Shown: piece by piece, positions 7,636 to 52,485 of the stretch
How positions within the stretch are numbered: the first letter of the stretch is position 1
How the letters are laid out: each line of letters opens with the position of its first letter
Assembly (NCBI GenBank): GCA_018262715.1
Contig: JADFDS010000040.1
Coordinates: 24,340-88,339, forward strand
Length of the DNA stretch: 64,000 nucleotides
Direction of reading: 5' to 3'
Source of the DNA: Bacteroidota bacterium
Lineage (GTDB): Bacteria; Bacteroidota; Bacteroidia; Bacteroidales; VadinHA17
Program-made: the position numbers and the translations under genes
Notes under the pieces: model-generated
Databases searched by the model: none
What the model was told of the DNA's origin: nothing
Seen by the model: only the letters and a program-made list of their open reading frames with translations

Positions 7636-8820
7636 TTATCCCAGGAGGTCATACGGTACATTCGCCAGCCTGGATATGTCGCTGATCTTACCCCTGATAT
7701 CAAATCCCCTTACGCAGCTGGCAGTGCATGTGTCACAGCCGGCACAGGGATTGGCCTCAACCGCAGTCTCGCTGACAAGCTCTGAGGCCATAGCGGCATT
7801 ATGATAGCCGTAGGCATACATATAAGCCCTCATCAGCTCCGGTATCGGCAGATTATTGGGGCAGCCGGGGACACAGTTGCTGCATGCATTGCAGTAAAGC
7901 CCGGGTAATGAGGCTTCAGCCACCAGGTCAGCCTTTTCCTGATCTGTGAGCACTATGTCCTTCATAATTTTCAGATCTGTCTCCAGCTGGTCAAACGCAG
8001 TGATTCCGGGAATGGTGGTATGCACGTTCGGATTTGACAATACCCACTTCAGGGCAGCCTGTACGTTGACAGGCTTGGTTCTCTCCCTGTCAAGCCATCC
8101 TCCGGCCAATGTTTTCATGGCTACCACGCCAATGCCCGCTGCGGCAGCCTTCTCAATGGCGCTGTTCATCTCAGCAAGGTAGGTCTGGCGGTAGTTGTAT
8201 GATGTGAGCACAACATCCCATATACCATCTTCAACCATGGTATTGATAACCAGCGGCTCATTCTTGTGTGTTGATATCCCAATGAACCGAACCCTTCCCT
8301 GCTTCTTCAGATCAAGCATCGCTTTGACAGTCTCCCTGTGCCTGACCATCTCAACACTGTCTGCAGAGTGCATGTAAAGAATATCAACATAGTCGAGTTT
8401 CAGCCTGCTCAGGCTGAGATTAAACATTGCCAGGAAGCTCTCGGCCGTGGTATCCTTTGAGGGAAGCCCGGTACGGGAGTCAACCCCCGCCGGCTTCACC
8501 TTTGTGGCTAACACAAATGATTCGCGGGGCAGAGTGCTGAAAAATCCTCCGAGCATCTCCTCGTTCCGGCCGTTCATATAGCCGTGAGCCGTGTCAAAAA
8601 GCTTTATTCCACCCTCATGGGCAGCCCTTACCAGAGAACTGTTGTCAGACCTCATCACGCCGAAGCTGACTACGGGCAGCCTGAGATTGGTTTTACCCAG
8701 GGTCCTGTATATAATCTCTCCCTCATCTGTTTTACCGTTTACGGCCAGGGCCCGGTTACCCATCAATGTGATCCCTGCTGCTCCCGCAAGGCCGGATCTG
8801 AAAAAGTTTCTGCGTTTCAT
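7636..8820 (-). CDS. Tat-exported aldo/keto reductase with C-terminal 2x[4Fe-4S]-type cysteine motifs
   Basis: Twin-arginine signal MKRRNFFRSGLAGAAG. AKR core (FDTAHGYMNGRNEEMLG, DILYMHS). C-terminal CNACSNCVPGCP and CAGCDTCTASC. ORF extends to 8865, but ATG 8820 places the RR motif at the N-terminus. Confidence 0.8.
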   Translation of the reverse strand: MKRRNFFRSGLAGAAGITLMGNRALAVNGKTDEGEIIYRTLGKTNLRLPVVSFGVMRSDNSSLVRAAHEGGIKLFDTAHGYMNGRNEEMLGGFFSTLPRESFVLATKVKPAGVDSRTGLPSKDTTAESFLAMFNLSLSRLKLDYVDILYMHSADSVEMVRHRETVKAMLDLKKQGRVRFIGISTHKNEPLVINTMVEDGIWDVVLTSYNYRQTYLAEMNSAIEKAAAAGIGVVAMKTLAGGWLDRERTKPVNVQAALKWVLSNPNVHTTIPGITAFDQLETDLKIMKDIVLTDQEKADLVAEASLPGLYCNACSNCVPGCPNNLPIPELMRAYMYAYGYHNAAMASELVSETAVEANPCAGCDTCTASCVRGFDIRGKISDISRLANVPYDLLG

Positions 8821-8985
8821 TGGGAATTTTTGGTCGTCTTCTATGATTTCTGCAAATATGCTCACTTCAGGGCAGTGTTGATAAATTCATTCTGTTCTTA
8901 TCACCGTGCCGTTGAGAATGAGCCAATATACAAATATTTTATCTTATTTTAGCGAGGCTGTCGCGCAGCAAAAAATCAGGCAATC

Positions 8986-29881: not shown

Positions 29882-31933
29882 TCACCAGACCGGAAGGAAG
29901 GAATATTTCTTCCCGTATTCCATCATCTGGCCCAGGAAATCTGAACAGTACTCAATTTTCACATCTGTTATCTTACCATTGCTGTCTGTGACAGGTGTCA
30001 TGACCGGATTAACGAATCCGCTGTATGGAGCCAGATTCAGTCCGGCATACCTTGCAAGTATCTCACCATGAAGTTCCTGATCTATCTTTACACCATAGTT
30101 CTCAATCATGTCGCGGCCAGCTGCGAAATCACCTTCCGACTTGATTCTCTGCACCTCCTTCAGCATCTCTCCGAAGAGTCCGCGCAGTTTCTGATAATCA
30201 TTTATCCGGACAAACGTCTTGTTGTCACGCTTTACCACCTCAATCACATTCTCAGACCTGCCCTTCTCATATACCCAGTGGGCTATTGAAGACCGGCACC
30301 TCATATGAGCCTGTTCTATGTCCTTGCCTGGCTGGATTCTTACTATCTGGGTCAGGAAACCATTGCGTATATAACCGTCATACTGTGCCCTGGCAGGTTC
30401 GTCCGTAGGCATAAGCCCGATCTCCGTCATCTTCGGATCCATCATGAAGTAAAGGGCAAACAGGTCAGCTCTCATCTCCTCCAGGGGAGAGGCATAGTTT
30501 TTCAGGGCATTGGGATCAGTTCCGGGAGCCAGCTTGCCGCTGGCGTGGCCGATGCACTCATGCATGTCAGTGTGCAGTGCATCGGAGAGTGATCCCCATT
30601 TTACCGCCCTGTCAATCTCGGCCTGATCACAGGCGAACTCCTCCAGGAACCCGCTTCCCCGTGACACGATATCCTTTGCATCAGTGATATTGGCAAGGGT
30701 GACTGATTTGGAGCCGGCTTCCGTTCTGATCCAGTTTGAGTTTGGCAGGTTGATCCCCAGCGGAGAGGCCGGGTAGCAGTCGCCTCCGAGCATTGCCACA
30801 TTGATTACGCTGGCGGCCACCCCGGTGACCTTTTCCTTGCGGTATTTCCCATCCACAGGTGAATGATCCTCGAACCACTGGGCGTTCTCCGTTATCAGAG
30901 CCGTCCTCTTCGAGGCTTCAGTGTCCTTATAATCGACTACAGCCTCCCATGTGGCTTTCATACCCAGCGGATCACCATATGTTTCAATGAATCCGTTGAT
31001 ATAGTCAACTGACAGTCCGGTGTTGCCGGCCCATACAACATTGTATTCATCCCATGTCTTCAGATCAGCGCTCCTGTAGTATTGTACAAGCAGGTCGAGC
31101 TCATTCTTCTGTGTTTCGCTCAGCGCAACATCACGTGCTTTTTCCAGCCAGTAGACTATTTTGTCGATGGCCTGACCGTACATTCCGCCACTCTTCCATG
31201 GAATCTCAGTCACCTTGCCGTCAGCCTTCACCACCTTTGTGTTCAGGCCCCATGAAACCGGTCTGGGATCTGCCGGATCAGCGAGCGAGGCATAATACTT
31301 CTCCACTTCGGCCTGTGTCACTCCCTCATAGAAATTGTTGGCTGATGCGGTTATCATGTCAGCACCCTCCGACTGGTCAACTCTTCTGGCATACAGTGCA
31401 GGGTCAAACAGCACCGGTGTGAGCATGGCGGTAAGGTCACCTGCGGTCTGTCCCTCTTTTAACGGCAGGCGGGCTGCGTCAGAACCGCTGACCAGCCCGG
31501 CAAAATAATCCGCTGAAAATCCCGGAACAAATTTGTCATTTGAATAGTGATGGTGTATGCCGTTGGCGAAGAAGACCCGCTTGGCATAGGTGATGAATGC
31601 CTTGTAATCAGTGCTCTCGCGGTCACCGTCATATGTATCGATTATTGCCTCGATGGTCTTGCGGATGAGCATGTTATATTTAAAGTTCTGATCCCAAAGT
31701 ATGTCGCGGCCACACAGAGCTGCCTCAGACAGGTAATAGATGAATTCCTTCTCCCCTGACGTCAGTTGTTCAAACGCTGGCAGGCGGTACTTAAGCACGC
31801 TGATATCTTCAAACCTGTCAACTTCATAGTTGAATTCAGCCTCCGGTGCTGCCTTTTTGCCGGCCTGCCCGCATGAGGTCAATAGCGCTGTTCCCATAAA
31901 TGCAATCGTTCCGATTAGTAAGAATTTTTTCAT
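29882..31933 (-). CDS. Dipeptidyl-peptidase III (M49) family lipoprotein
   Basis: Lipobox LLTSCGQ. M49 zinc motifs HECIGH (HExxGH) and EEMRAD (EExRAE/D). Confidence 0.85.
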   Translation of the reverse strand: MKKFLLIGTIAFMGTALLTSCGQAGKKAAPEAEFNYEVDRFEDISVLKYRLPAFEQLTSGEKEFIYYLSEAALCGRDILWDQNFKYNMLIRKTIEAIIDTYDGDRESTDYKAFITYAKRVFFANGIHHHYSNDKFVPGFSADYFAGLVSGSDAARLPLKEGQTAGDLTAMLTPVLFDPALYARRVDQSEGADMITASANNFYEGVTQAEVEKYYASLADPADPRPVSWGLNTKVVKADGKVTEIPWKSGGMYGQAIDKIVYWLEKARDVALSETQKNELDLLVQYYRSADLKTWDEYNVVWAGNTGLSVDYINGFIETYGDPLGMKATWEAVVDYKDTEASKRTALITENAQWFEDHSPVDGKYRKEKVTGVAASVINVAMLGGDCYPASPLGINLPNSNWIRTEAGSKSVTLANITDAKDIVSRGSGFLEEFACDQAEIDRAVKWGSLSDALHTDMHECIGHASGKLAPGTDPNALKNYASPLEEMRADLFALYFMMDPKMTEIGLMPTDEPARAQYDGYIRNGFLTQIVRIQPGKDIEQAHMRCRSSIAHWVYEKGRSENVIEVVKRDNKTFVRINDYQKLRGLFGEMLKEVQRIKSEGDFAAGRDMIENYGVKIDQELHGEILARYAGLNLAPYSGFVNPVMTPVTDSNGKITDVKIEYCSDFLGQMMEYGKKYSFLPVW

Positions 31934-32002
31934 GATACGGCTTTGTTGTAATCAGGTATCTAAGGTAGCAAAAAGCTTTATCTCCTATGGGAAATTTACT
32001 AT

Positions 32003-32761
32003 CTATTGCTTTTTGCCCAGCAAATCCATTAAGCCGTTAATGAACGTCAACGGATGGGCAGGATTGCCGGGAATGTAAAGATCAATATGATGATTTTCAA
32101 TGAAATTCCTCTTAATGGCAGGACTGCCGGCAAAGAGCCCTCCGCTGATGGCGTCAGTGCCGACAAGAATGATTAACCTTGGCGCAGGAGTTGCTTCGTA
32201 GCAGATCTCCAGTGCCCTGGACATGTTTTCGGAAACAGGACCGGTGATGACAATTCCGTCGGCATGACGGGGTGAAGCCACAAATTCAATTCCGTACCTG
32301 CCCATATCAAAATTCACGTTCCCCGTTGCCCCCAGTTCCATCTCGCATGAGTTATCGCCTCCTGCCGACACCTGGCGGAGTTTCAGGGACTGCCTGAACA
32401 ACCTGCGGATCTCCTTCCTGACAGCAGTCTCATCTATCCGGACCGGATCAGCCTGGCCGGGCTTTATGACCAGGTCTTCCTTCCTGGTGGCAGCAATACG
32501 GTAGTCATTGGTGAACCTGTAAACCTCCGGCATTGCCAATGCACACTCATTGCAGAAGGAGCACCTGCCAAGATCAATGGCACCGCTGTTGCCGTCAATG
32601 GCGCCTGCCGGGCATAACGCAGCAGCTCTTCCGGCCAGGGCTGCAGTAATATCTGCTGAGATTACCGGCCTGCCCCTGAACAGGGCAGAGACGGGTTGAT
32701 TACGGAGATCAGGTACGTACTGTTTGCCGTGATCGGCGAGTATTTTAATCTCTTTTAGCAT
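32003..32761 (-). CDS. NuoB/HycG-like small subunit of the Hyf/Ech-like complex, fused to a half-degenerate ferredoxin segment; proximal-cluster cysteines mostly lost
   Basis: NuoB/HycG family blocks RHADGIVITGPVS, GTDAISGG and YIPGNPAHP. The expected Cys positions read D136, C139, D203 and N233. N-terminal AxxAxxAxxxCP (40-51) plus CxxCxxCxxxMP (67-78). Confidence 0.85.
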   Translation of the reverse strand: MLKEIKILADHGKQYVPDLRNQPVSALFRGRPVISADITAALAGRAAALCPAGAIDGNSGAIDLGRCSFCNECALAMPEVYRFTNDYRIAATRKEDLVIKPGQADPVRIDETAVRKEIRRLFRQSLKLRQVSAGGDNSCEMELGATGNVNFDMGRYGIEFVASPRHADGIVITGPVSENMSRALEICYEATPAPRLIILVGTDAISGGLFAGSPAIKRNFIENHHIDLYIPGNPAHPLTFINGLMDLLGKKQ

Positions 32762-32778
32762 TGCCTTTCAGGTATTAT

Positions 32779-34299
32779 CTACAGGTCGTTGCCACAGTAA
32801 GAAAGGTTAAAGCTCTTGTTGCATACCGGGAAATCAGATATCTCCTGGCTTCGTACGGCAAGGACAAGGGCCATCCAGTTATGCATGGAGGGATCCTTGA
32901 CCTTATACATGGCCAGCTTTCCGTCACTGTCAGTCACCGCCACATGGCATATCTCCCCTCTCCATCCTTCTGTCGCCGAGACAGCCAGGCAGTCAGGCCT
33001 GAATTTCAGGTCATACTGCGGTCTGCCGGTCTCCTTCGCACCACTTCTCCAACTGTCAATCAGCCTGCGGATAATCTCCACCGATTCTTTTACTTCAAGG
33101 GCACGGAGCATCCCACGGGCGAGAACGTCACCCGTTTCCTGCATCACCGGGTTGATCTCCATCTTCCTGTAATACTGGAAGGGATGGGTCGCACGCATAT
33201 CCCTGGGCACCCCGCAGGTGCGTGCAGCCATACCCACCGCGCCTATGGAAGTTGCCTGCTTCCGCGTAACATTACCTATATCCTCAAAGCGCCCGAGAAC
33301 GCTTGGAAGGGTATAAACACAACCGGTAACATTGCCGTATCTCCTGTCAACATCTTCCAGAACCCTGAGTATTTCGACCGCGGACTCCTCAGTGAGCGGG
33401 AAGTTCGATCCGCCGGGACGTATAAGGCCCTTCCCAAACCGGTTTCCACACCAAAACTGGGTTGTGTTTATTACCATTGTTCTCAGAGCCTCGCAAGCCA
33501 CCTGTCCCAACTGGTAAGCCACATCACCGCACAGAGCAGCCGTATCACCTATGTGCACGGCAATTCGTTCAAGCTCCAGGGCAATGCAGCGCTCGGCCTG
33601 GAGTGAAACCGGAGGCTCAAAACCTGCCAGCGATTCAGCCAGCTGTGCATGTGCCAGACCGTGTGCCACGGCACTGTCGCCTGCAATGTCTTCCGCAAGG
33701 AGTGCCCGACGCAGACTGTCACCGGCAGACGTGAGGAGCTTCTCAATACCCCGGTGCTGGTATCCAAGCTGAATCTCAAGATGCAGTACCCTCTCACCGT
33801 TGCATATGAACCGGAAGTGACCGGGCTCGATCACACCTGCATGAATGGGCCCCACTCCCACCTCATGAAGCTCCTCGCTCTCCATGCTGTAGAATGGATA
33901 GTTATCCATCACACTGAGCCTGTCAGCCCTGTCATGCGGATACCTCACCGGTTTGAGCCAGGGATGACCCTCGAAAACCACACCATGATTTTCATGTATC
34001 TCACGTTCAAATATATGCATCGCGTAACACGACGCCGTCAACGACTTCAGCGACGTGCCGTCATCTTTCTTAATGTGGCTTAGTATCCTTATCTCCCCGG
34101 AACCGTCATCGGCAATGATGCAGATGAACCTGAATCCTTCGCCGGTCCTGAAACAGGAGTAGCTCAGGCAATGATAACGTTCATCTGTCAGCATGGAGGT
34201 GACTTCTTCATGGAACAGGTCATAACCGATCACCGGGATCTCAGAAAATCCTGCGGGTGACGAACCGTTCCTGACTACTGTATACCTGTTGCTGCTCAT
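32779..34299 (-). CDS. HycE/HyfG-like (NuoC-NuoD fusion) large subunit lacking [NiFe] cysteine ligands
   Basis: NuoC-like FEREIHENHGVVFEGHP. NuoD/large-subunit blocks GPIHAGVIEPGHFRF and GYQHRGIEKL. The L1 position reads AGDSAVAH (nt 33661-33684) instead of CGxCxxxH. The C-terminus reads FNLSYCGNDL with no CxxC. Confidence 0.9.
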   Translation of the reverse strand: MSSNRYTVVRNGSSPAGFSEIPVIGYDLFHEEVTSMLTDERYHCLSYSCFRTGEGFRFICIIADDGSGEIRILSHIKKDDGTSLKSLTASCYAMHIFEREIHENHGVVFEGHPWLKPVRYPHDRADRLSVMDNYPFYSMESEELHEVGVGPIHAGVIEPGHFRFICNGERVLHLEIQLGYQHRGIEKLLTSAGDSLRRALLAEDIAGDSAVAHGLAHAQLAESLAGFEPPVSLQAERCIALELERIAVHIGDTAALCGDVAYQLGQVACEALRTMVINTTQFWCGNRFGKGLIRPGGSNFPLTEESAVEILRVLEDVDRRYGNVTGCVYTLPSVLGRFEDIGNVTRKQATSIGAVGMAARTCGVPRDMRATHPFQYYRKMEINPVMQETGDVLARGMLRALEVKESVEIIRRLIDSWRSGAKETGRPQYDLKFRPDCLAVSATEGWRGEICHVAVTDSDGKLAMYKVKDPSMHNWMALVLAVRSQEISDFPVCNKSFNLSYCGNDL

Positions 34300-34304
34300 G
34301 ATTT

Positions 34305-35732
34305 CTATCTGGGTAGCGATGAGATGCTGGTGCTGATCAGGTCAGTAAGAAAGGGTGGCTGCCAGAAGCAGATCATAATCACGAGGGCCAGCAGGATGAA
34401 CTGGCTGACCGTCTCTACCGGGCTGACCATGCCCGGTTGCAGCAATTCACTGTCATTCCTCGGTGATGAAAAGCTGACATGCATTATCCTCGTGCTCATC
34501 GCATAAATTATATAGCAGAGAAGAATGACTGTCAAAGCCATGACCAGCCACTGGCCGTTGACTACCATCGCCCTGAGGATCATAAGTTCAGAGATGAACA
34601 TTCCTGACGGGGGTATGGCAAGAATGCAGATCATGCCTGTCATAAGCACCATAGCCCCTGCGGGATAGAGTTTCATATACCTGCCGCTTTCATCGAGCCT
34701 GAATGTGTGAAGGATCCTTGAAAGCTGTCCCATCTGGTAAAAAAGGCTTGACTTGGCTAAAGAATGGAGTACTATAAGCAGCAGGGCGGCATAATAGCCG
34801 TATCCGCCAACACCCAGGGCGATTGCAACAAGTCCCATATTCTCGAGGCTCGAGTATGCAAGCATGCGTTTCAGATGTTTTGCCTTCAGCATGTAACCGG
34901 CAGCTATAAGCAACGAAAGTACACCGGCCAGGATAAGTACATTACTCATGAATGAGAGCGCCGGAGTGCCGGAAAAAAGCGTGTAAACGCGATAGATGGC
35001 AAGGAATCCCACATTCATCAGGGTGGTGGAGATGAGCGCGCTCACAGGAGGTGGCGCCACAGAGTGGGCATCGATGGTGACTGTATGCATGGGAAAGAGA
35101 CCCATCTTGGTGCTGAATCCCACCAGCACAAATATGAACGCTATCTTGAGATACAGGGGATTGGCGTTGCTGATAACGTGACTAAAAGAGGAGAAGGAGA
35201 GGTTCGGGGCATCGCCGCGTCCGTAGATAAATCCCAGGAATAGGATTCCGAGGTAAGCCAAAGCAATACCCGTGGAACAAATAAATACGTATTTCCACGT
35301 AGCCTCCAGCGCCATCTCAGTGCGGTCGTGGTAGATGAGCACCGCCACGGCAAGGGTGGTTGCCTCCACGAAAATCCACAGAACCGTCATCGTGTTGGCC
35401 AGGTACGCTCCGGCCATGAATGTCATAAGTGCTATCAGCCCGGAGTGATATATATTAAGTCTCTTGACGGTGTCATCACGGGTATAGATAAAGCCATGGT
35501 AAACCGTAGGAAGAGTCAGCAGGGTCAGTACTGACAACAGCAGCACCGCCGTACTGTCATAGGTGAACCAGGTGAGTTCGGTGTTGCCCCTGTTAATCCA
35601 GGCGTGAACCGTAATGGCAATGAGAAGGGCAGAGAACGCAAGTGCAAATGCCCTCGTCAGTCCCCTGTTCCGGGAGAGGAGTGTAACGCCGCTCAGCGCC
35701 AGTGACAGTATGAAGAAGAGCAACAGCATCAT
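34305..35732 (-). CDS. HyfF/NuoN-like antiporter-type membrane subunit
   Basis: Polytopic. Mrp/Nuo antiporter-like blocks WIFVEATTLAV, GFSTKMGLFPMHT, MLAYSSLENMG and HSLAKSSLF. Confidence 0.85.
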   Translation of the reverse strand: MMLLLFFILSLALSGVTLLSRNRGLTRAFALAFSALLIAITVHAWINRGNTELTWFTYDSTAVLLLSVLTLLTLPTVYHGFIYTRDDTVKRLNIYHSGLIALMTFMAGAYLANTMTVLWIFVEATTLAVAVLIYHDRTEMALEATWKYVFICSTGIALAYLGILFLGFIYGRGDAPNLSFSSFSHVISNANPLYLKIAFIFVLVGFSTKMGLFPMHTVTIDAHSVAPPPVSALISTTLMNVGFLAIYRVYTLFSGTPALSFMSNVLILAGVLSLLIAAGYMLKAKHLKRMLAYSSLENMGLVAIALGVGGYGYYAALLLIVLHSLAKSSLFYQMGQLSRILHTFRLDESGRYMKLYPAGAMVLMTGMICILAIPPSGMFISELMILRAMVVNGQWLVMALTVILLCYIIYAMSTRIMHVSFSSPRNDSELLQPGMVSPVETVSQFILLALVIMICFWQPPFLTDLISTSISSLPR

Positions 35733-35734
35733 CC

Positions 35735-36349
35735 TTAATCCTTTAACATGGTCAGTTCATTTGTATGCGGCTTGAGCCGAAGCCCGAAAAAGCCCAGGAT
35801 CAGGACACCTACGAAGATGTCAAGAAGTATCCCGATGTTGATAAGCATCGGCATCTCATTGCCTATGGCCAGAGAAAAGAGGAAGACCGCATTCTCAACC
35901 ACAAGGAACCCGATCAGGTGCGAAATAATGAGCTTGTGGGTCACAATCAGAAGCAACCCGGTCAGAAGGGTGAACAGTGCTATTGCAAGGTATATCGAAT
36001 TGATGAAGGGATTCACAAGGATCACGGCAAGAATAACACTGATCAGCAGTCCCGCTATTGAAAAAAGCAGCAGGTAAAACCCGGGAACAGCCTGCCTGTG
36101 CACCTTTGTCACACCCGACTTCCGGATAATCCGGCTCAGCAGGTATGGCAGAAGCAGAGTCTTGAAAAGCAGCGTCTCTGCCACTATGAAGAGCAGGTTT
36201 GCCAGGTTGACCTCCTTAAGTTCAAACACTGCAATACCGCACAGCAGAAGGCCCTGCAGCGCCACCAGCCTTACATACGTACTCAGCCTTTCTGCCGAGG
36301 CAAAGTAGATGAGAGTCACCGCAAAGAGAACTATAAGGTAGTTTACCAT
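35735..36349 (-). CDS. HyfE-like small membrane subunit (NuoK-related)
   Basis: 204 aa with about 6 TM helices and an intramembrane Glu (FLVVENAVFLF). Its position between the HyfC-like and HyfF-like genes matches hyf gene order. Confidence 0.7.
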   Translation of the reverse strand: MVNYLIVLFAVTLIYFASAERLSTYVRLVALQGLLLCGIAVFELKEVNLANLLFIVAETLLFKTLLLPYLLSRIIRKSGVTKVHRQAVPGFYLLLFSIAGLLISVILAVILVNPFINSIYLAIALFTLLTGLLLIVTHKLIISHLIGFLVVENAVFLFSLAIGNEMPMLINIGILLDIFVGVLILGFFGLRLKPHTNELTMLKD

Positions 36350-36355
36350 TTCCTT

Positions 36356-37270
36356 TCAGGCCAGTTTTTCAGTCAGTATCAGAATAACCATAAACGCGAT
36401 GAGGGCTATCGAGGACAGAGTCAGGATGAACTTCGGATTCTTGTTCATCTTGTTCCTTGCCCTGAATGATTCCGTAAATCCGATTACCACGGCAAAAAGA
36501 GCCTGCACAGCGAAAAAGAGCCCGGTCTGCAGAATCACATTCCATCCGGCAGGTACAACGAGATTATATATCAGCGAGCCATAGATGGCAAATTTCAGGT
36601 ATGTGCCAATATGGATCAGCGCCTTATCGAAGCCGCTGTAGTCAAGTATCATCACCTCGTGGATCATGGTCAGCTCAAGGTGTGTCTTCGGATCGTCGAC
36701 AGGCAGCCTGCTGTTTTCTATCATGGCAATCTGAACCAGGAGATAAGCCCCTATAATACTGTAAATCAACACATAATCATTCCCGGTAATAAAGAAGTGG
36801 TTAAATATTACGGAAAATGAGGTGTATCCGGTGAACATTGCAAAGGTGGCAATCAGAATGAAGAAGGCCGGTTCAACAAGCATTGAGAAGAGGGCTTCAC
36901 GGCTGGCTCCCATCCCTTCAAAGCTGCTTCCGGTATCAAGAGCTGCAATTATCGTAAAAAACTTTCCGAGAGCTAGCAGGTAAGCGAACATGATGAAATC
37001 GCCCTCAAAGGAAAGCACTGCCTTTTGCTCCGCAAAGGGCAGAAACAGCATGGCTCCGGTGACTGTTGCCAGGGTGACCGACGGAGCTATTCTGAAAATC
37101 AGGCCGGTGGTGTCACTGAATACACTCCCTTTCCTGAACAGGACAGCAATATCCTTCCATGGCTGGAATATACCCGGGCCTTTGCGTCCGGAGGCGATGC
37201 TCTTCGTCCGGAGGATTACTCCGGGGAAAAAGAAGGCTGCGACAGCTATGAGTACAAATCCTGCCATCAT
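36356..37270 (-). CDS. HycD/HyfC/NuoH-like membrane subunit
   Basis: Signature block ENSRLPVDDPKTHLELTMIHEVMILDYSG (compare the HycD/NuoH family) and N-terminal RTKSIASGRKGPGIFQPWKD. Confidence 0.85.
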   Translation of the reverse strand: MMAGFVLIAVAAFFFPGVILRTKSIASGRKGPGIFQPWKDIAVLFRKGSVFSDTTGLIFRIAPSVTLATVTGAMLFLPFAEQKAVLSFEGDFIMFAYLLALGKFFTIIAALDTGSSFEGMGASREALFSMLVEPAFFILIATFAMFTGYTSFSVIFNHFFITGNDYVLIYSIIGAYLLVQIAMIENSRLPVDDPKTHLELTMIHEVMILDYSGFDKALIHIGTYLKFAIYGSLIYNLVVPAGWNVILQTGLFFAVQALFAVVIGFTESFRARNKMNKNPKFILTLSSIALIAFMVILILTEKLA

Positions 37271-39264
37271 CAGATTATTTTGAGCATTGCCAGCAACAAT
37301 ACAAGCAACATGAAGACAAATGCATAGAGAATATAATGTCTTATCTGACCGGTCTGCATCACGGCTATCCTTTTAAGCAATCCCGAGACCAGGTCAACCG
37401 GCCTGTCTACAAGGTGTCGCTTGAAGAGGTCATCGCTGTGCGAAAGGAATTTCCTCCCATGAGGGAATATCTCATCCTCTCCGATCTCTTCAATTTCCTT
37501 CCTGGTCTGCAGCAATGGCTTGGCGATGTGGTTATAGTTGTAGGCGAACGATGTTGCTGTATACTGTTGCTTCGCTGACCCGGCCGTATAGCCGCAGCCC
37601 CAGGTGGGGCCGGTTTCCACCACGCGCCGGCTCAGGTGATACCTCCGGTAGAGCAGAAGCACGGCAACAGTGACGACAAATATCCCTCCTGCCAGGCTGA
37701 GCTGAGCCAGATTGGCGGTGAAGGCTCCGGAGACCAGTGGCTGTGCGCCCAGGTTCCATATCTGCCCGACAATGCCAAAAACCGGTTTCACCACCAGCGG
37801 TGATCCAAGCCCGATAAAGATGATCATGGCTGCAGTGGCCAGCTGCGGATAAATCATGGATTTTCCCGCCTCACGGGCATGTCCGGCCTGATCTGACCTC
37901 GGCTCGCCAAGAAACACGATTCCGAAAGCCTTGGTGAAGCAGAAGATAGCAAGTCCGCCAATAAGTGACAATGCTGCAATTGACCCCACAATGAGTATGG
38001 AGTGGAAGAGATTGGCACCGGAAAGGCTGCCGAACATCCCCATATATATCAGGTATTCAGAGATAAAACCGTTGAACGGCGGCAGTCCGCAGATAGCCAG
38101 CGATCCGGTCAGAAACAGGATGGCAGTCCATGGCATCCGTTTCATCAGGCCTCCCGTTTGCTCCATATTGCGAGTATGGGCAGCCAGGTAAACAGAGCCG
38201 GCATTAAAGAAGAGCAGTGACTTGAAAAGAGAATGATTCAGGACGTGGAGAAGGCCTCCTGAATAGCCAAGCAGGGAAAGGGTATGATTGCCTGTTGCCT
38301 GGCCTATGACTCCCAGGCCGAGACCAATTCCGATAATGCCTATGTTCTCGATGCTGTGATAGGCGAGCAGCCTTTTAAGGTCATGCTGGACTATAGCCAT
38401 CATCACACCCAGGACTCCTGATACGAGAGATATAATCAGGATAATGACACCCGTGACCAGCAGGTCTGACTGCATTGCAGCCAGTACCCTTACGATACCG
38501 TAAATGCCCATCTTGATCATCACCCCTGACATCACCCCTGAGACATGTGACGGGGCAGCCGGATGCGCCTCAGGAAGCCATGTGTGCAGCGGAATGAATC
38601 CGGCCTTGATGGCAAAACCGGCAAAGAAGAGCAGGAATACCGGGAGGTTTCGGTGTCTGCCAAAATATTCACCGAGTGCGTCGAAGCTCATCCTTCCTGT
38701 ATCCTGCTGTACAATCAGGAATGCGACAAGAATGAAGAACATGCCCACATGCATCTGGATGAGATAGCTGATTCCTGTCTTCATGATGCTCCTCTCTTCC
38801 GCATCGAAGATCACGAGGAAGAACGATGAGAGAGCCATTATCTCCCATACTATCAGGAAAGAAAGCCCGTCACGCACCATCACAACCATAAGCATTGAAA
38901 TCCACAGCCACAGGTATGAGAAGTAATGGATTGAAAAACGGAGAGCGTTCATCCGGGCACGGTAAGGCTCAAGATACCCCCTGGCGTAGAGGAACCCGAC
39001 AAGTACGGTAAAATTGATGACAAGAATGAAAAAAGCAGAAAGACTGTCAATTACCAGCACCATCCTGGTGCCTGTTGCCGCAGTGAACAGGGATAATTCG
39101 CAGGTCTGCCCGGCGTCTGGAAGCACACCTGTACACCATGATGTGGAAAGTGCAATCCCTGCTGTCAGGAGGCCCAGGGTAAAGTAATACTTCAGCCATT
39201 CAGGCACTGCAAAGACGAACAGTGAGAGAAGCAAGATGACCAGAAAGGCTGTTGATCCAAACAT
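37270..39264 (-). CDS. HyfB/HycC/NuoL-like antiporter-type membrane subunit
   Basis: 664 aa, polytopic. Blocks WEIMALSSF, GFAIKAGFIPLHTWLPEAHPAAPS, LLAYHSIENIG and NHSLFKSLLF. Its stop overlaps the next gene's ATG by 1 nt (TGATG). Confidence 0.9.
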   Translation of the reverse strand: MFGSTAFLVILLLSLFVFAVPEWLKYYFTLGLLTAGIALSTSWCTGVLPDAGQTCELSLFTAATGTRMVLVIDSLSAFFILVINFTVLVGFLYARGYLEPYRARMNALRFSIHYFSYLWLWISMLMVVMVRDGLSFLIVWEIMALSSFFLVIFDAEERSIMKTGISYLIQMHVGMFFILVAFLIVQQDTGRMSFDALGEYFGRHRNLPVFLLFFAGFAIKAGFIPLHTWLPEAHPAAPSHVSGVMSGVMIKMGIYGIVRVLAAMQSDLLVTGVIILIISLVSGVLGVMMAIVQHDLKRLLAYHSIENIGIIGIGLGLGVIGQATGNHTLSLLGYSGGLLHVLNHSLFKSLLFFNAGSVYLAAHTRNMEQTGGLMKRMPWTAILFLTGSLAICGLPPFNGFISEYLIYMGMFGSLSGANLFHSILIVGSIAALSLIGGLAIFCFTKAFGIVFLGEPRSDQAGHAREAGKSMIYPQLATAAMIIFIGLGSPLVVKPVFGIVGQIWNLGAQPLVSGAFTANLAQLSLAGGIFVVTVAVLLLYRRYHLSRRVVETGPTWGCGYTAGSAKQQYTATSFAYNYNHIAKPLLQTRKEIEEIGEDEIFPHGRKFLSHSDDLFKRHLVDRPVDLVSGLLKRIAVMQTGQIRHYILYAFVFMLLVLLLAMLKII

Positions 39265-39283
39265 TAATCCGGCAATTTGCCCG

Positions 39284-39291
39284 CAAATGTA
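39284..39291 (-). promoter_or_regulatory. Candidate -7 promoter box TACATTTG for the Hyf/Ech-like operon
   Basis: Reverse complement of 39284-39291 is TACATTTG (TAnnTTTG), with 19 nt between the box and the ATG at 39264. Confidence 0.45.
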
Positions 39292-39326
39292 AAAAATATA
39301 TTATCCGGTTATACTTTAAACCGGAT
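39292..39326 (-). terminator. Candidate rho-independent terminator of the upstream GH109-like gene
   Basis: Read on the minus strand: ATCCGGTT-TAAAGTAT-AACCGGAT (39326-39303), followed by AATATATTTTTT. Confidence 0.45.
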
Positions 39327-39344: not shown

Positions 39345-40808
39345 TTATATCTCCAGCTGGTTGTTGCCGCCCTTGAGGCCTATCACCATTGTATTTCCGC
39401 CTGCCGGGATGTTGGGGTCAAAAGGAAGATTTGCCTTGTATGATCCGCAGGTAAAGTCCGGTACATCAATTGATGACGACCTGTTTGCCACTGACCATTC
39501 GCTGAGAGGGGTGATAACGCTCCAGAGGGCGGCGTCATAGACATCCTGGTCGAGAGGCAGTCCGTTTCGCAGGCAGTCTATCAGCCTCCAGTCCATGATG
39601 AAGTCCATCCCGCCGTGACCACCTATGACCTTTGCCATCTCTCCCACCCTTTTAACAATCTCAGGTGTGTACTGAGCCTCAAGGGCAGCCTGATCCTCAG
39701 GTTTCAGCCATGAATGGCCGAGGGCTATCCTTGCCGGTGATGGCCACTTCTGGGCAAATCCTTTGGTGCCGCTGACGAGATGTATCCTCGAATATGGCCT
39801 CGGGCTTGAAACGTCATGCTGGATCATAATGCTCCTTCCGAGTGCCGTCTTTACCAGAGTGGTGTTCATGTTGCCACGGTAACTCTTCCCGGCAAATGGA
39901 GCATAAAACGGGTCCTCCTTTGCCAGTTGTTCCAGCTCCGGTCCCATGGCGAAATCATTTGATGAGAGTGATGTCAGGTATTCCATCCTGTCACCCCTGT
40001 TGATGTTCATTATCTGACAGACCGGTCCCAGGCCATGGGTCGGGTAAAGGTCGCCGTTGCGCACATTTTCCTTCAGCCTCCACATGTCAGCATAACCGTT
40101 CTTATCATAGGTGAAGTCCCATCGCAGGTCATGGATATAAGCCCCCTCCCCGTGCACTATGTCGCCAAAGAGTCCCTGGCGTGCCATGTTAAGTGTCAGC
40201 AGCTCAAAAAAGTCATAGCAGCAGTTTTCAAGCTGCATGCAGTGTTTCTTTGTCCGCTCGGATACCTCAACAAGTTGCCAGCACTCCTCCACAGTCTTTG
40301 CAGCGGGTACTTCCACCGCCACATGCTTGCCTGCTTCCATGGCATAGACAGCCATAGGGGTGTGCCATGCCCAGGGTGTGCAAATGTAAACAAGGTCGAT
40401 GTCGGGGTCATCACACAATCCTTTCCATGCTTCCTCGCTGCCGCTGAAGCCCTTTGCCTGTGGCAGCCCGAACTTTGTGAGCATCGCCTGCGCCTTTTCA
40501 ACCCTGTCGGGATACTTGTCGCAGAGCGAAGCTATCTCTACCCCTTCTATGTGTGCCATCCGCTCGACGGCACCCGGACCCCTCATTCCGAGGCCGATGA
40601 AACCTATCCTGATTTTTCCCAGCGGCGGAGCAGCATAGCCTGACATGTTGAAGCTCTGGTTGTGTACGGCCATTGCTGCCGCCCTGACCTCTGCCATGGC
40701 TTCGGTTGATTTTTCTCGGCGGACACATGAGGATGTACTGACAGCCGTCAGAGTTCCTGCTCCGGCAACTGCAGCAGTGCGGAGAAAATTCCTTCTGTTG
40801 GTTTTCAT
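39345..40808 (-). CDS. Tat-exported Gfo/Idh/MocA family oxidoreductase, GH109-like
   Basis: Twin-arginine signal MKTNRRNFLRTAAVAGAG. Rossmann motif RIGFIGLGMRGPG. Length and architecture resemble NAD-dependent GH109-type enzymes. ATG 40808 preferred over 40850. Confidence 0.8.
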   Translation of the reverse strand: MKTNRRNFLRTAAVAGAGTLTAVSTSSCVRREKSTEAMAEVRAAAMAVHNQSFNMSGYAAPPLGKIRIGFIGLGMRGPGAVERMAHIEGVEIASLCDKYPDRVEKAQAMLTKFGLPQAKGFSGSEEAWKGLCDDPDIDLVYICTPWAWHTPMAVYAMEAGKHVAVEVPAAKTVEECWQLVEVSERTKKHCMQLENCCYDFFELLTLNMARQGLFGDIVHGEGAYIHDLRWDFTYDKNGYADMWRLKENVRNGDLYPTHGLGPVCQIMNINRGDRMEYLTSLSSNDFAMGPELEQLAKEDPFYAPFAGKSYRGNMNTTLVKTALGRSIMIQHDVSSPRPYSRIHLVSGTKGFAQKWPSPARIALGHSWLKPEDQAALEAQYTPEIVKRVGEMAKVIGGHGGMDFIMDWRLIDCLRNGLPLDQDVYDAALWSVITPLSEWSVANRSSSIDVPDFTCGSYKANLPFDPNIPAGGNTMVIGLKGGNNQLEI

Positions 40809-40947
40809 GGTTAGGTAAGTTTCGAAATGGATTATGTATGCAATATACAATGTTTCCGATTACAATATTATGTCCGCGGCTGGAAGTCAAATGGCTTAAA
40901 GGGGGCACCCGGGCCGGGCTTCTCGGAATGAGCCGGACAGCCACTTC

Positions 40948-50285: not shown

Positions 50286-50864
50286 TCACCTGGCAGCTGC
50301 CGCATCCCTCCCGGCACGCAGTGCCTTCAGATTGACCTCAACAACCTCTTCTCCCTTGCGGCCGAACATCTTCCTGACCGCATCTTCGAGCGCCGTGAAG
50401 GGCATCGAGATGAATGACGAAGCAGCACCCAGGATGACCATGTTGCCTGATCTGGCTGATCCCAGGTCACGTGCAATGCCGTCTGCATCAAGCACAATGG
50501 TGTTACCCGCCCTGTTAAGTTCAGCCAGCACCTCTCCTACCTCCGGGTAATCGGAGATATTCACGAAGGGAACCGAATTGGTAACCAGCCATCCGCTCTC
50601 TGAGAGCCATGGCAGATAACGAAGTGCCTCCATGGGTTCAACACTTATGATGAGATCTGCACCTCCGTGCGGTATAAGATCTGAAAAAATCTCGCTGTCG
50701 GAGAGACGCAGGTGCGACTGCACGTCGCCCCCGCGCTGGCTCATACCATGTACCTCCGCCTGCTTGAGGAAGAGGTTCTGTTCAACGGCTGCAAGCCCTA
50801 TCGTGGCTGCAATGGAGAGAATACCCTGTCCTCCCACTCCTGCAAGTATAATATCACATTTCAT
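50286..50864 (-). CDS. iorB: Indolepyruvate:ferredoxin oxidoreductase subunit beta
   Basis: N-terminal MKCDIILAGVGGQGILS (OFOR gamma-type domain). Starts 1 nt after iorA. Confidence 0.9.
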   Translation of the reverse strand: MKCDIILAGVGGQGILSIAATIGLAAVEQNLFLKQAEVHGMSQRGGDVQSHLRLSDSEIFSDLIPHGGADLIISVEPMEALRYLPWLSESGWLVTNSVPFVNISDYPEVGEVLAELNRAGNTIVLDADGIARDLGSARSGNMVILGAASSFISMPFTALEDAVRKMFGRKGEEVVEVNLKALRAGRDAAAAR

Positions 50865-50865
50865 A

Positions 50866-52485
50866 TCATTCCCTTGATTTGTTTTTCTCAGCCGCTTCGG
50901 CCTTTTTGTTGCGTGATGCCGTCTGGATGCACTCCCGTCTTGCCAGTATCACCGAGATACCGTGATAATTGAGTTCAGCGCGGATAACGGCTTTGTTCTC
51001 CTCATGATTCTTTCTCAGAGGCACTATCACCTTCAGGTGATCAGGATCAACACCCAGCCCCAGGCAGATGCTCTCAAGCCTGTCAGTGGCCTGCGATTTC
51101 TGCCCCCCGGTCATCCCGGTGGTGGAGTTGTCAGAGATAATCAGTGTTACCGGTGAATTCTTGATCACCGCATCAAGCAGTCCTGTCATGCCTGAATGGG
51201 TAAATGTGGAGTCACCTATCACGGCCACTGCCGGAAACAGACCGGCATCTGCAGCTCCGATTGCCATTGTCACCGAGGCTCCCATATCAACACACGAATT
51301 GACCATGTTGTATGGTGGCAGGGCGCCGAGGGTATAACAGCCGATATCTGAAAAGACGCGTCCGGGCCCGGCTTCTGCCATTACCTCTGACAACGCCTGG
51401 TACAGGTCGGCATGTCCGCAGCCCTTGCAGAACGACGGGGGACGCTGACGCACCAGCGAGGGAACCTCCCTGCCCTGACCGGCCCTGAGACCCAGGGCAC
51501 TGGCAACAATTGACGGATTAAGCTCCCCGTCGCGGGGTACCGTACCGTCCATCCTGCCCAGAACTTTGACGTCACGGTCAAGAAGACCCCTTAGCTGCTC
51601 CTCGATTATCGGATAACCCTCTTCCAGCACAAGAACCCTGTCACAGTTTTCCACCAATGCTGCAACCTTTTCCCTTTTGAGGGGATAAGCACCCACTGAT
51701 AGAACGTGATAATCTCCTGCTCGGTCAGCAATGTTTTCCATCAGGTAATTGTAAGCAATCCCGCAGGTAATGACCCCTGTGCCCCTGCCGTTTCCGGATT
51801 TCAGCCTGTTGAGCCCGTCAACAGCATCGTCAGTGCGCAGTTTCTCATAAACCGCTGTAAGAGCCCTGTACTGCTTCCTGGCTATCGCTGGAAGAAGCAC
51901 AAACTGCCGCGGATTCGAAGGCAGGGCAACACTGTTCTGAGCAATCTTTTCCCTCCGTGCAACAGATGACCTTGAATGTGCCAGCCTGGTTGTAATCCTG
52001 AACAACACAGGAAGCCTGTACTTCTCCGAGAGGGCAAAGGCTTCAAAGATCATGTCATAGGCCTCCTGCTGGTTACGCGGCTCCATTACCGGAACCAGGG
52101 CAAACTTGCCATAAAAGCGCGAGTCCTGCTCATTCTGGGATGAATGCATTGACGGATCATCTGCTGATACAACCACCAGCCCGCCGTTGACTCCCGTCAC
52201 CGCCGAGTTGATGAACGCATCAGCCGCCACATTCAACCCTACATGCTTCATTGCAACCATCGCCCTCTTGCCTGCATATGACATCCCCAGGGCAGCCTCC
52301 ATGGCTGTCTTCTCATTTGACGACCATTCACGGTGAACACCGTCCGCAGCAGCCTGCGGCGAAGCCTGGATGTACTCCATAATCTCAGTTGACGGAGTAC
52401 CCGGATAAGCATACATTCCGCTCAGGCCTGCATCCAGGGCAGCCTGCGCAATAGCCTCATCTCCAAGCAATAAGAGTTTATGCAT
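50866..52485 (-). CDS. iorA: Indolepyruvate:ferredoxin oxidoreductase subunit alpha (TPP enzyme)
   Basis: N-terminal LLLGDEAIAQAALDAGLSGMYAYPGTPSTEI. TPP-binding region GDSTFTHSGMTGL. Paired with iorB. Confidence 0.9.
   Translation of the reverse strand: MHKLLLLGDEAIAQAALDAGLSGMYAYPGTPSTEIMEYIQASPQAAADGVHREWSSNEKTAMEAALGMSYAGKRAMVAMKHVGLNVAADAFINSAVTGVNGGLVVVSADDPSMHSSQNEQDSRFYGKFALVPVMEPRNQQEAYDMIFEAFALSEKYRLPVLFRITTRLAHSRSSVARREKIAQNSVALPSNPRQFVLLPAIARKQYRALTAVYEKLRTDDAVDGLNRLKSGNGRGTGVITCGIAYNYLMENIADRAGDYHVLSVGAYPLKREKVAALVENCDRVLVLEEGYPIIEEQLRGLLDRDVKVLGRMDGTVPRDGELNPSIVASALGLRAGQGREVPSLVRQRPPSFCKGCGHADLYQALSEVMAEAGPGRVFSDIGCYTLGALPPYNMVNSCVDMGASVTMAIGAADAGLFPAVAVIGDSTFTHSGMTGLLDAVIKNSPVTLIISDNSTTGMTGGQKSQATDRLESICLGLGVDPDHLKVIVPLRKNHEENKAVIRAELNYHGISVILARRECIQTASRNKKAEAAEKNKSRE

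Follow-up and report, generated by a model that had tools for sequence, protein, structure and literature searches.

An Ehr-type operon of an uncultured Bacteroidales bacterium without Ni-Fe ligands and with one remaining [4Fe-4S] ligand set

In a 64-kb stretch of contig JADFDS010000040.1 (the window), we identified an operon of six intact genes of an uncultured Bacteroidales bacterium, located on the minus strand between 32003 and 39264. The operon almost certainly encodes a complex of the energy-converting hydrogenase-related (Ehr) type and not a hydrogenase. Its large subunit is homologous to that of the group 4 hydrogenases but has none of the Ni-Fe cysteines, and it is encoded in one operon with a small subunit, a NuoH-like anchor and antiporter-like subunits, a synteny which was found in 60+ loci. 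The small subunit keeps 5 of the 12 Fe-S cysteines, with ligands for one of three [4Fe-4S] sites. Ehr complexes, which are related to energy-converting hydrogenases and have no Ni-Fe ligands, were defined by Marreiros, Batista, Duarte and Pereira (2013, BBA 1827:198-209); the initial annotation of the window had attributed the grouping to Marreiros and colleagues at about 2013, correctly according to the papers citing this work. The founding cluster is the ‘Ech-hydrogenase-related’ cluster GSU0739-0745 of Geobacter with EhrA, EhrC, EhrL and EhrS (Coppi, 2005). HydDB filters Ehr proteins out as non-hydrogenases. Papers from 2019 to 2023 still state that the Ehr function ‘remains unknown’ or that its role has ‘never been investigated’, which agrees with the initial annotation, where the function was called experimentally uncharacterised.

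The six tightly packed genes follow the order HyfB-, HyfC-, HyfE-, HyfF-, HyfG- and HyfI-like with spacings of -1, 6, 2, 5 and 17 nt, exactly as initially annotated, and the start of gene 2 overlaps the stop of gene 1 by 1 nt (TGATG). All NCBIfam scores of the six proteins are far under the equivalog cut-offs.

37270 to 39264, minus strand: gene 1, HyfB/HycC/EhrA-like antiporter-like subunit, 664 aa
36356 to 37270, minus strand: gene 2, HyfC/NuoH-like membrane anchor of the peripheral arm, 304 aa
35735 to 36349, minus strand: gene 3, HyfE-like small membrane subunit, a NuoK-related part of the membrane arm, 204 aa
34305 to 35732, minus strand: gene 4, HyfF-like antiporter-like subunit, 475 aa
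32779 to 34299, minus strand: gene 5, large subunit of the EhrL type, fusion of a NuoC-like and a HycE/NuoD-like part, 506 aa
32003 to 32761, minus strand: gene 6, small subunit of the EhrS type with a HycF/MbhN-like ferredoxin domain and a NuoB/HycG-like domain, 252 aa

The large subunit shows the Pfam domains Complex1_30kDa and Complex1_49kDa and is a fusion of the NuoC-NuoD/HycE type. Its best fold match is HycE (7z0s_E, TM 0.77; sequence E = 4.7e-33), and the fold search with the AlphaFold2 model, which has a predicted local distance difference test (pLDDT) value of 71, re-confirmed the HycE fold. The two motifs which provide the Ni-Fe ligands in group 4 hydrogenases, L1 and L2, are replaced as follows.

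33661 to 33693, minus strand: former L1 motif, now EDIAGDSAVAH (residues 203-213), with A206 and S209 in place of the cysteines
32782 to 32835, minus strand: former C-terminal L2 motif, now DFPVCNKSFNLSYCGNDL (residues 489-506), with S500 and G503 in place of the cysteines

In phmmer alignments to solved structures, A206 and S209 stand opposite C241 and C244 of HycE and the cysteines of MbhL, and S500 and G503 opposite C531 and C534 of HycE, with C502 lying between both former L2 positions. An HMMER scan with the large subunit covered 1.84 billion representative proteins, and nearly all of the best 150 representatives have E-x-x-[AS]-G-D-[ST] and DFP.CNKSF.LSY.G.DL. The nearest true hydrogenases carry ER[IV]CG[VA]C..SH and DFPLINKSF.LCYSC.DR in the columns of the two window motifs. 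As true hydrogenases at 33-37% identity (P0232, P0239, P0258, P0260 and P0264) can be aligned column by column, it is confirmed that the window large subunit has no ligand cysteine. The alignment against HycE and MbhL, which had been proposed as a check of the initial annotation, placed no cysteine at any L1 or L2 position, and the claimed loss of these ligands holds against HycE, MbhL and the nearest true hydrogenases alike. Nor does a cysteine occur at these four positions in the 14 close homologs compared, in any of 74 orthologs from more than 10 phyla or in the majority of the 150 representatives. E203, G207 and D208 are invariant across the 74 orthologs, nearly all of which also share the unchanged C-terminal motif. 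C493 and C502 are kept in about 85% of the orthologs, but off the ligand positions.

These alignments also bear on the reading of the operon as a genuine Hyf/Ech-type [NiFe]-hydrogenase, similar to formate hydrogenlyase-2, whose ligands were misaligned. The gene order resembles hyfBCEFGI, and public database labels read ‘Ni,Fe-hydrogenase III large/small subunit’. This candidate was rejected because three independent alignments give A/S and S/G at L1 and L2. The nearby C502 is one residue off and not universal, the ligands of the proximal cluster are absent, and neither hyp, hycI, fdhF nor hyfA genes were found among the scanned ORFs of the window, so that we see virtually no chance for a hydrogenase here. 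Pfam scans of about 50 of the 56 open reading frames (ORFs) in the window detected no hyp, hycI, formate dehydrogenase, NuoEFG or nickel transporter genes, in line with what had been noted for the first four at the outset.

The small subunit matches Oxidored_q6 (NuoB-like) and has a weak Fer4/HycF/HyfH-like N-terminus (NCBIfam NF009053). Two domains can be distinguished.

32462 to 32680, minus strand: ferredoxin-like domain (residues 28-100), C50-P51 and C67xxC70xxC73 kept
32015 to 32389, minus strand: NuoB-like domain (residues 125-249), D136, C139, D203 and N233 at the positions of the proximal cluster

MbhN and HycF match residues of about 28-100 in a consistent though weak way (E about 0.02). 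The initial annotation was right that no separate ferredoxin subunit is encoded, but the fused HycF/MbhN-like domain with its four-cysteine motif had been overlooked. In this domain the positions of a second ferredoxin-type cluster are replaced by T39, A43, A46 and M77. The match to MbhJ is much clearer (E = 3.6e-20), and the four cysteines which bind the proximal [4Fe-4S] cluster in MbhJ and HycG align to D136, C139, D203 and N233. Three of the four cysteine ligands of the proximal (N2-type) cluster are thus lost, in accordance with the proposed loss of this site. The AlphaFold2 model of the small subunit has a pLDDT of 65, with 83-94 in the ferredoxin-like domain, and the fold search re-confirmed the NuoB fold.

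C50-P51 and C67xxC70xxC73 are invariant across the whole family and give one set of four cysteines, which may correspond to a position like that of N6a or N6b. The other eight cysteine positions, four of the second ferredoxin-type cluster and four of the proximal site, divide the family in two. The eight extra cysteines are mostly kept in the non-Bacteroidota loci and in the two Bacteroidota loci L010 and L040 (loci are given with L numbers). The window and 27 Bacteroidota-type loci have non-cysteine residues at the first-cluster positions and the pattern D/x/D/N at the proximal site. Among close homologs of the window small subunit, D-C-D/E-N was found in 121 of 121. D/E203 and N233 are present in all 27 Bacteroidota-type loci; positions 136 and 139 vary in a few, and the proximal site of a few clade members (L009, L008) is without any cysteine. 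The stretch of the lost ferredoxin cluster is variable in sequence. C187 (32201-32203) is mostly Cys in the D-x-D-N clade and usually Thr in the all-cysteine clade.

A neighbour-joining tree of the large subunit, which was rooted on true hydrogenases and carries no support values, places the D-x-D-N clade within the all-cysteine Ehr family. Due to this nesting, the loss of two of the three cluster sites appears derived and specific for the Bacteroidota clade. The assignment to Ehr in the initial annotation is supported by the same gene order in Geobacteraceae, but the loss of the proximal cluster, as the initial annotation could not know from the window, is special to the Bacteroidota clade and not a general Ehr trait. 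The Bacteroidota form represents a distinct Ehr variant: it has a single cluster motif and an invariant D-C-D-N site, and its operon consists of six genes without the EIIA regulator. We did not find this variant described in the literature, the 2013 Ehr paper being covered through its citing papers only, and literature searches on Ehr or hyf genes in Bacteroidota yielded nothing relevant.

The large subunit has thousands of homologs, among them 120 clusters at least 63% identical. These are mostly from metagenome-assembled genomes (MAGs) of Bacteroidales and are labelled as ‘NADH-quinone oxidoreductase subunit C’ or ‘Ni,Fe-hydrogenase III large subunit’. When one genome per species was scanned, 80 loci were recovered from Bacteroidota, Spirochaetota, Planctomycetota, Verrucomicrobiota, Melainabacteria, Desulfobacterota (Geobacter, Geomonas and Pelobacter), Elusimicrobiota, Fibrobacterota, Lentisphaerota and others. 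According to gene assignment by tblastn and ORFs, nearly all of the 80 loci follow the order B-(B')-C-E-F-G-I, and two are rearranged. The order is the same in the Geobacteraceae loci L050, L059 and L066, where the large subunit is 43% identical to that of the window. Loci of Geobacter, Geomonas, Pelobacter, Citrifermentans and Pelotalea share order and motifs at this identity; the link to GSU0739-0745 is an indirect one, as the sequence of G. sulfurreducens was not part of the comparison, and a search with the Geomonas large subunit returned no protein named ‘EhrL’. Many loci consist of seven genes, including a second antiporter-like gene, and the window operon of six. In the seven-gene Bacteroidota loci (L014, L016, L018, L020, L021, L023, L026, L027, L029 and L036), the second HyfB/HyfD-like gene stands ahead of the NuoH-like gene.

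In 24 of the 80 genome loci, gene B is immediately preceded on its strand by a gene for a protein of about 235 aa with HTH_17 and PTS_EIIA_2 domains. This gene was found among L033-L080 (e.g., L044, 4151-4924) and also in most all-cysteine metagenome loci, and it is absent from the Bacteroidota-type loci, including the window. In the Prolixibacteraceae loci L016, L021 and L029, a divergent gene for a regulator of the Crp/FNR family (cNMP-binding and HTH_Crp_2) is located upstream of gene B. Solitary Ehr-type large-subunit genes with full motifs occur in a Prevotellaceae MAG (L006, 6405-7907) and a Cytophagales MAG (L037, 10001-11521), with no other Ehr subunit within 5-10 kb and with FKBP, AhpC and RimP genes as neighbours. 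L123 (4282-20955) contains two tandem Ehr operons, the second copy being 34-38% identical to the window proteins.

The membrane subunits had been described as intact, and this is borne out by the channel residues and the NuoH-like loop, which are conserved in both clades. Genes 1 and 4 encode proteins with the Pfam domain Proton_antipo_M, for which the best NCBIfam models are hydrogenase-4 subunit B and hydrogenase-4 subunit F, respectively. The best PDB match of the gene 1 protein is HycC (7z0s_C, E = 6e-59). It retains E141 in transmembrane helix (TM) 5, K220 in TM7, K251 in TM8 and K348 in TM12, and in the HyfB-like subunit this Glu and the three Lys are invariant in the D-x-D-N and the all-cysteine clade. 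E123 (TM5), K209 (TM7) and K327 (TM12) of the HyfF-like subunit are invariant in both clades as well, and the TM8 position is Asn family-wide. The gene 2 protein matches NADHdh (Pfam) and is NuoH-like; its TM5-6 loop, R188-P190-D192-D193-P194-T196-H197-L198-E199...H204-E205, is conserved to at least 90% in both clades. The gene 3 protein matches the HyfE model NF008556 of NCBIfam (E = 3e-12). It gave no Pfam match and only spurious matches in a sequence search of the PDB; the L048 gene at the same position matches PF00420 (NuoK).

The large subunits of the two clades differ little, with 106 positions at least 90% conserved in both and few clade-specific changes. The changes specific for the D-x-D-N clade cluster at residues 257-301, including K290, which is R in the all-cysteine clade. 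K290 aligns with H169/H170 of Nqo4, by homology the part which faces the cluster of the small subunit, and the clustering of the changes suggests that the interface was remodelled around the lost cluster. C257 (33529-33531) is Cys in at least 90% of the D-x-D-N clade and mostly Ala in the all-cysteine clade. Whether or not the Fe-S chain is present, the residues of the pocket are conserved to the same degree, and their role therefore seems to be independent of electron delivery.

The ratio dN/dS was measured against L082 (84-99% amino-acid identity, dS about 0.85-1.2) and amounts to 0.056 for gene B, 0.025 for C, 0.010 for E, 0.049 for F, 0.101 for G and 0.075 for I. In the small subunit, constraint is strongest on the NuoB-like domain, which lacks the cluster (0.02-0.06), compared to 0.10-0.15 in the ferredoxin-like domain. 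Relaxed selection, which would have spoken against a functional complex in the initial annotation, was not seen in any of the six genes (0.01-0.10), and the strong purifying selection together with the intact membrane module indicates that the operon is not decaying. A decaying relic of a former hydrogenase operon would be in accordance with the lost cofactor ligands and with the operons of L012, L013 and L032, which are split into many short ORFs. However, these three are long-read MAGs, in which frameshift errors are probably common, real decay being the alternative. The relic was rejected in view of the six intact ORFs, the low dN/dS values and the thousands of intact homologs with invariant functional residues; it is extremely unlikely.

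On these grounds the complex would consist of a membrane arm like that of complex I and formate hydrogenlyase-2, with two antiporter-like subunits, one NuoK-related subunit and a NuoH-like anchor, and of a cap formed by the HycE-like large subunit and the ferredoxin-NuoB fusion. The electron wire appears to be cut, the proximal site and the outer ferredoxin cluster being gone. Since one of three [4Fe-4S] ligand sets is left and D-C-D-N stands beside the large subunit, the complex most likely transfers no electrons, and the conservation of pocket, coupling loop and channels despite the unlikely electron path favours a non-redox ion machine. We tentatively prefer, at somewhat below an even chance, an ion-gradient-linked machine with Mrp-like translocation of H+ or Na+/H+, in whose cap a gated site would bind ions or protons or have a regulatory role. 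E158, E203, D208, H213, K495, Y501 and D505 in the pocket of the large subunit would be part of this site, D136, C139, D203 and N233 of the small subunit would complete the polar pocket of the cap, and the NuoH-like subunit would couple it to the antiporter-like channels. Non-redox operation, the ion species and the direction are what we infer here; the anatomy of the complex, the loss of its ligands, the selection on its genes and their distribution are observed. The initial annotation had seen in the operon a system of unknown chemistry. This agrees with the literature, in which Ehr is uncharacterised, with the qualification that the complex may involve no redox chemistry at all.

Several points weigh against a non-redox machine. 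The AlphaFold2 models are poor exactly at the former metal sites and the pocket. Fe-S clusters can also be ligated by Asp, and the D-C-D-N site, where C139 and the clade-specific C187 remain, may hold a mononuclear redox metal or an unusual cluster. The conserved four-cysteine motif argues that some Fe-S chemistry is kept, and the three-cluster chain of most non-Bacteroidota Ehr that the ancestral function was a redox one. Subunits of the MrpE/F/G type, as in true Mrp antiporters, are missing, and partners may be encoded outside of the 64-kb window.

Some of these points would fit a redox-driven ion pump, in which electrons of reduced ferredoxin or another donor would pass the remaining [4Fe-4S] cluster and an unconventional metal centre at D136/C139/D203/N233 to an acceptor in the pocket, e.g., menaquinone, a sulfur compound or a bound cofactor, as in Mbs/Mbx, Fpo and the 11-subunit NDH-1. 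C50, C67, C70 and C73 are invariant everywhere, Ehr outside of the Bacteroidota keeps three clusters, and the replacement residues are invariant and potential metal ligands. Geobacter Ehr subunits were described to increase on formate, and the window contains, at a distance of 11 kb, the genes of an IorAB-like ferredoxin-reducing enzyme. On the other hand, the proximal site has a single Cys, and none in L009 and L008. Judging by the electron-transfer distances known from complex I, the way from the remaining cluster to the pocket would be too far without the proximal cluster. Tyr87 and His38 of the quinone site of Nqo4 align to G207 and I157, and there is no conserved partner gene nearby. No electron-input partner was found among the scanned ORFs of the window, and none recurs beside the Bacteroidota operons. 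Regarding the published idea of a link between formate dehydrogenase and Ehr, no formate dehydrogenase or NuoEF cluster recurs within 6 kb of the operons, where single-copy neighbours were annotated in part. A redox pump of this kind is a rather unlikely reading.

The gene neighbourhood of distant relatives points to another possibility, namely ion-gradient-driven catalysis or substrate handling without redox chemistry, chiefly vectorial CO2 hydration or bicarbonate handling in analogy to DabAB and cyanobacterial NDH-1/CupA, or the energising of such transporters. DabAB is a CO2 hydratase which is built on a proton conduit similar to that of complex I and is driven by the proton motive force; its DabB subunit, a PF00361 protein, couples the proton path to a Zn site similar to that of beta-carbonic anhydrases. 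In L039 (177-12371) the gene order is EIIA-G-I-DabA-DabB-PF00361-SulP::P-II. A metagenome scan seeded with the large subunit of L039 revealed co-directional DabA-DabB(-SulP) genes following G-I in L091, L096 (8213-16078) and L097 (9129-20615), and in the DabAB-linked loci the membrane-arm genes are divergent from the G-I-DabA-DabB set. L009 (4880-20283), which is of the D-x-D-N type, has DabB-DabA divergent from the operon and SulP downstream. SulP genes also adjoin L008, L021, L071, L089, L090 and L099. D208, H213, C493 and C502 lie in the former metal-site region of the large subunit, as would suit such a site. However, the association with DabAB or SulP occurs in about 5 independent lineages of roughly 150 loci, 69 loci of the standard type in the metagenome scan have neither, and it is absent from the window, in which no DabA (PF10070) is encoded, and from its close relatives. 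The estimates of chance adjacency use assumed, not measured, background gene densities. About 15% of the orthologs have other residues in place of C493 and C502, and there is no similarity to any carbonic anhydrase. The adjacency may serve as a lead for the Ehr family, not as evidence about the window, and a role in CO2 or bicarbonate handling seems improbable here.

A more far-reaching form of the preferred non-redox machine would be that in Bacteroidota a complex-I-type converter abandoned electron transfer altogether and that the Ni-Fe pocket and D-C-D-N became a new non-redox active or ion-binding site, which drives or gates ion flow, possibly with vectorial CO2 or bicarbonate handling. 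We regard this as unlikely in its full extent. The remaining probability falls to functions beyond the explanations listed here.

Two further elements were located in the 80-nt intergenic region upstream of the operon.

39303 to 39326, minus strand: hairpin ATCCGGTT with an 8-nt loop and AACCGGAT, then AATATATTTTTT; match to the consensus
39284 to 39291, minus strand: TACATTTG, candidate Bacteroidota -7 promoter box, 19 nt before the first ATG

The 8-bp hairpin and its T-run (39326-39291) lie directly 3' of the preceding gene and are likely, by sequence, the terminator of this upstream GH109/Gfo-Idh-MocA gene (39345-40850). The operon sits just downstream of this putative terminator hairpin, as initially annotated. 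The TAnnTTTG box ascribed to the operon is present as TACATTTG and is plausible as a -7 element. However, the window holds 29 matches of the motif versus 26.6 expected and hence no enrichment, so that the box alone is not statistically meaningful. Several copies of it sit 5-25 nt ahead of gene starts.

On the same strand, a gene for an M49 peptidase (similar to dipeptidyl peptidase III; 29882-32002) follows 69 nt after the last gene of the operon. As no terminator-like hairpin was found in between, read-through is possible. In L086 and L087, two relatives of the window locus, the operon and the M49 gene are separated by an oppositely oriented M20 peptidase gene. The IorAB-like 2-oxoacid:ferredoxin oxidoreductase is encoded by two genes (50286-52485). 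Another gene (7636-8865) encodes an aldo/keto reductase fused to a 4Fe-4S dicluster domain. Besides the small subunit of the operon, these were the only ferredoxin-linked or dicluster genes noticed in the window. The close relatives L083 and L086-L088 share the whole neighbourhood of the window, and the synteny there is therefore uninformative on function.

Ehr is common in anaerobes of many phyla, and its function has been open since 2005. The operon does not define a new class, as the Ehr kind is already known, but it offers a natural experiment on the coupling machinery without an electron wire: the Bacteroidota clade can be seen as a natural knockout of this wire, in which pocket, coupling loop and channels are still under selection. 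If no electrons are transferred, the coupling machinery of complex I would be reusable for non-redox work, and the reading of Ehr genes in metabolic reconstructions of Bacteroidales from gut, digester and sediment would change. With a non-redox site, Ehr would represent the functional class so far missing between Mrp antiporters, DAB pumps and the redox-driven relatives of complex I. In metagenome surveys, Ehr genes should not be counted as hydrogenases or complex I.

Among the known systems, the window operon shares with the Geobacter Ehr a large subunit without L1/L2 cysteines, a ferredoxin-NuoB small subunit and NuoH-, HyfE- and antiporter-like subunits. However, Geobacteraceae and most other phyla keep the 12 Fe-S cysteines of the small subunit and the window 5, and the Geobacteraceae operons often have seven genes and an upstream HTH and PTS-EIIA gene, whereas the window has six and no EIIA gene. 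Formate hydrogenlyase-2/hydrogenase-4 of Enterobacteria (HyfABCDEFGHIJ) is alike in the types and order of HyfB, C, E, F, G and I and in its five-part logic of anchor, antiporter-like subunits and NuoK-like HyfE. Compared to it, the window operon is without HyfA, HyfD, a separate HyfH, HyfJ, FdhF, the Ni-Fe ligands and the proximal cluster. The best sequence and fold matches (HycE, MbhJ and HycC) come from Hyc of E. coli (7Z0S) and Mbh of Pyrococcus (6CFW), both H2-evolving enzymes with Ni-Fe and three [4Fe-4S] clusters, whereas the window complex has ligands for one cluster. The two CxxC motifs L1 and L2 and the four-Cys proximal cluster, which mark group 4 [NiFe]-hydrogenases, are both missing.

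Complex I/NDH-1 has homologs of NuoB, C, D, H, K and L/M/N-like subunits in common with the window, as well as the conserved channel Glu and Lys. The window operon differs by the absence of separate NuoA/J/I/E/F/G, of the N2 ligands and of the quinone-site Tyr87 and His38, and by a membrane arm of four subunits only. Mbs/Mbx consists of 13 subunits with an Mrp module and three [4Fe-4S] clusters, compared to six subunits and one cluster motif here; the MbsL match (E = 1.9e-15) is weaker than that of HycE, and MbsL/MbsJ are weaker than Hyc/Mbh overall. Mrp antiporters are similar in their MrpD/MrpA-like PF00361 subunits with intact charged residues, but they lack NuoH, NuoD and NuoB homologs and need MrpB/C/E/F/G; with its peripheral arm the window complex is not a member of the Mrp family. 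The DAB pump combines a PF00361 proton-conducting subunit with a non-redox cytoplasmic catalytic subunit, which resembles the arrangement proposed here. In contrast to it, the window has no DabA and its cap is unrelated to carbonic anhydrases, the link being made by the gene neighbourhood of distant relatives.

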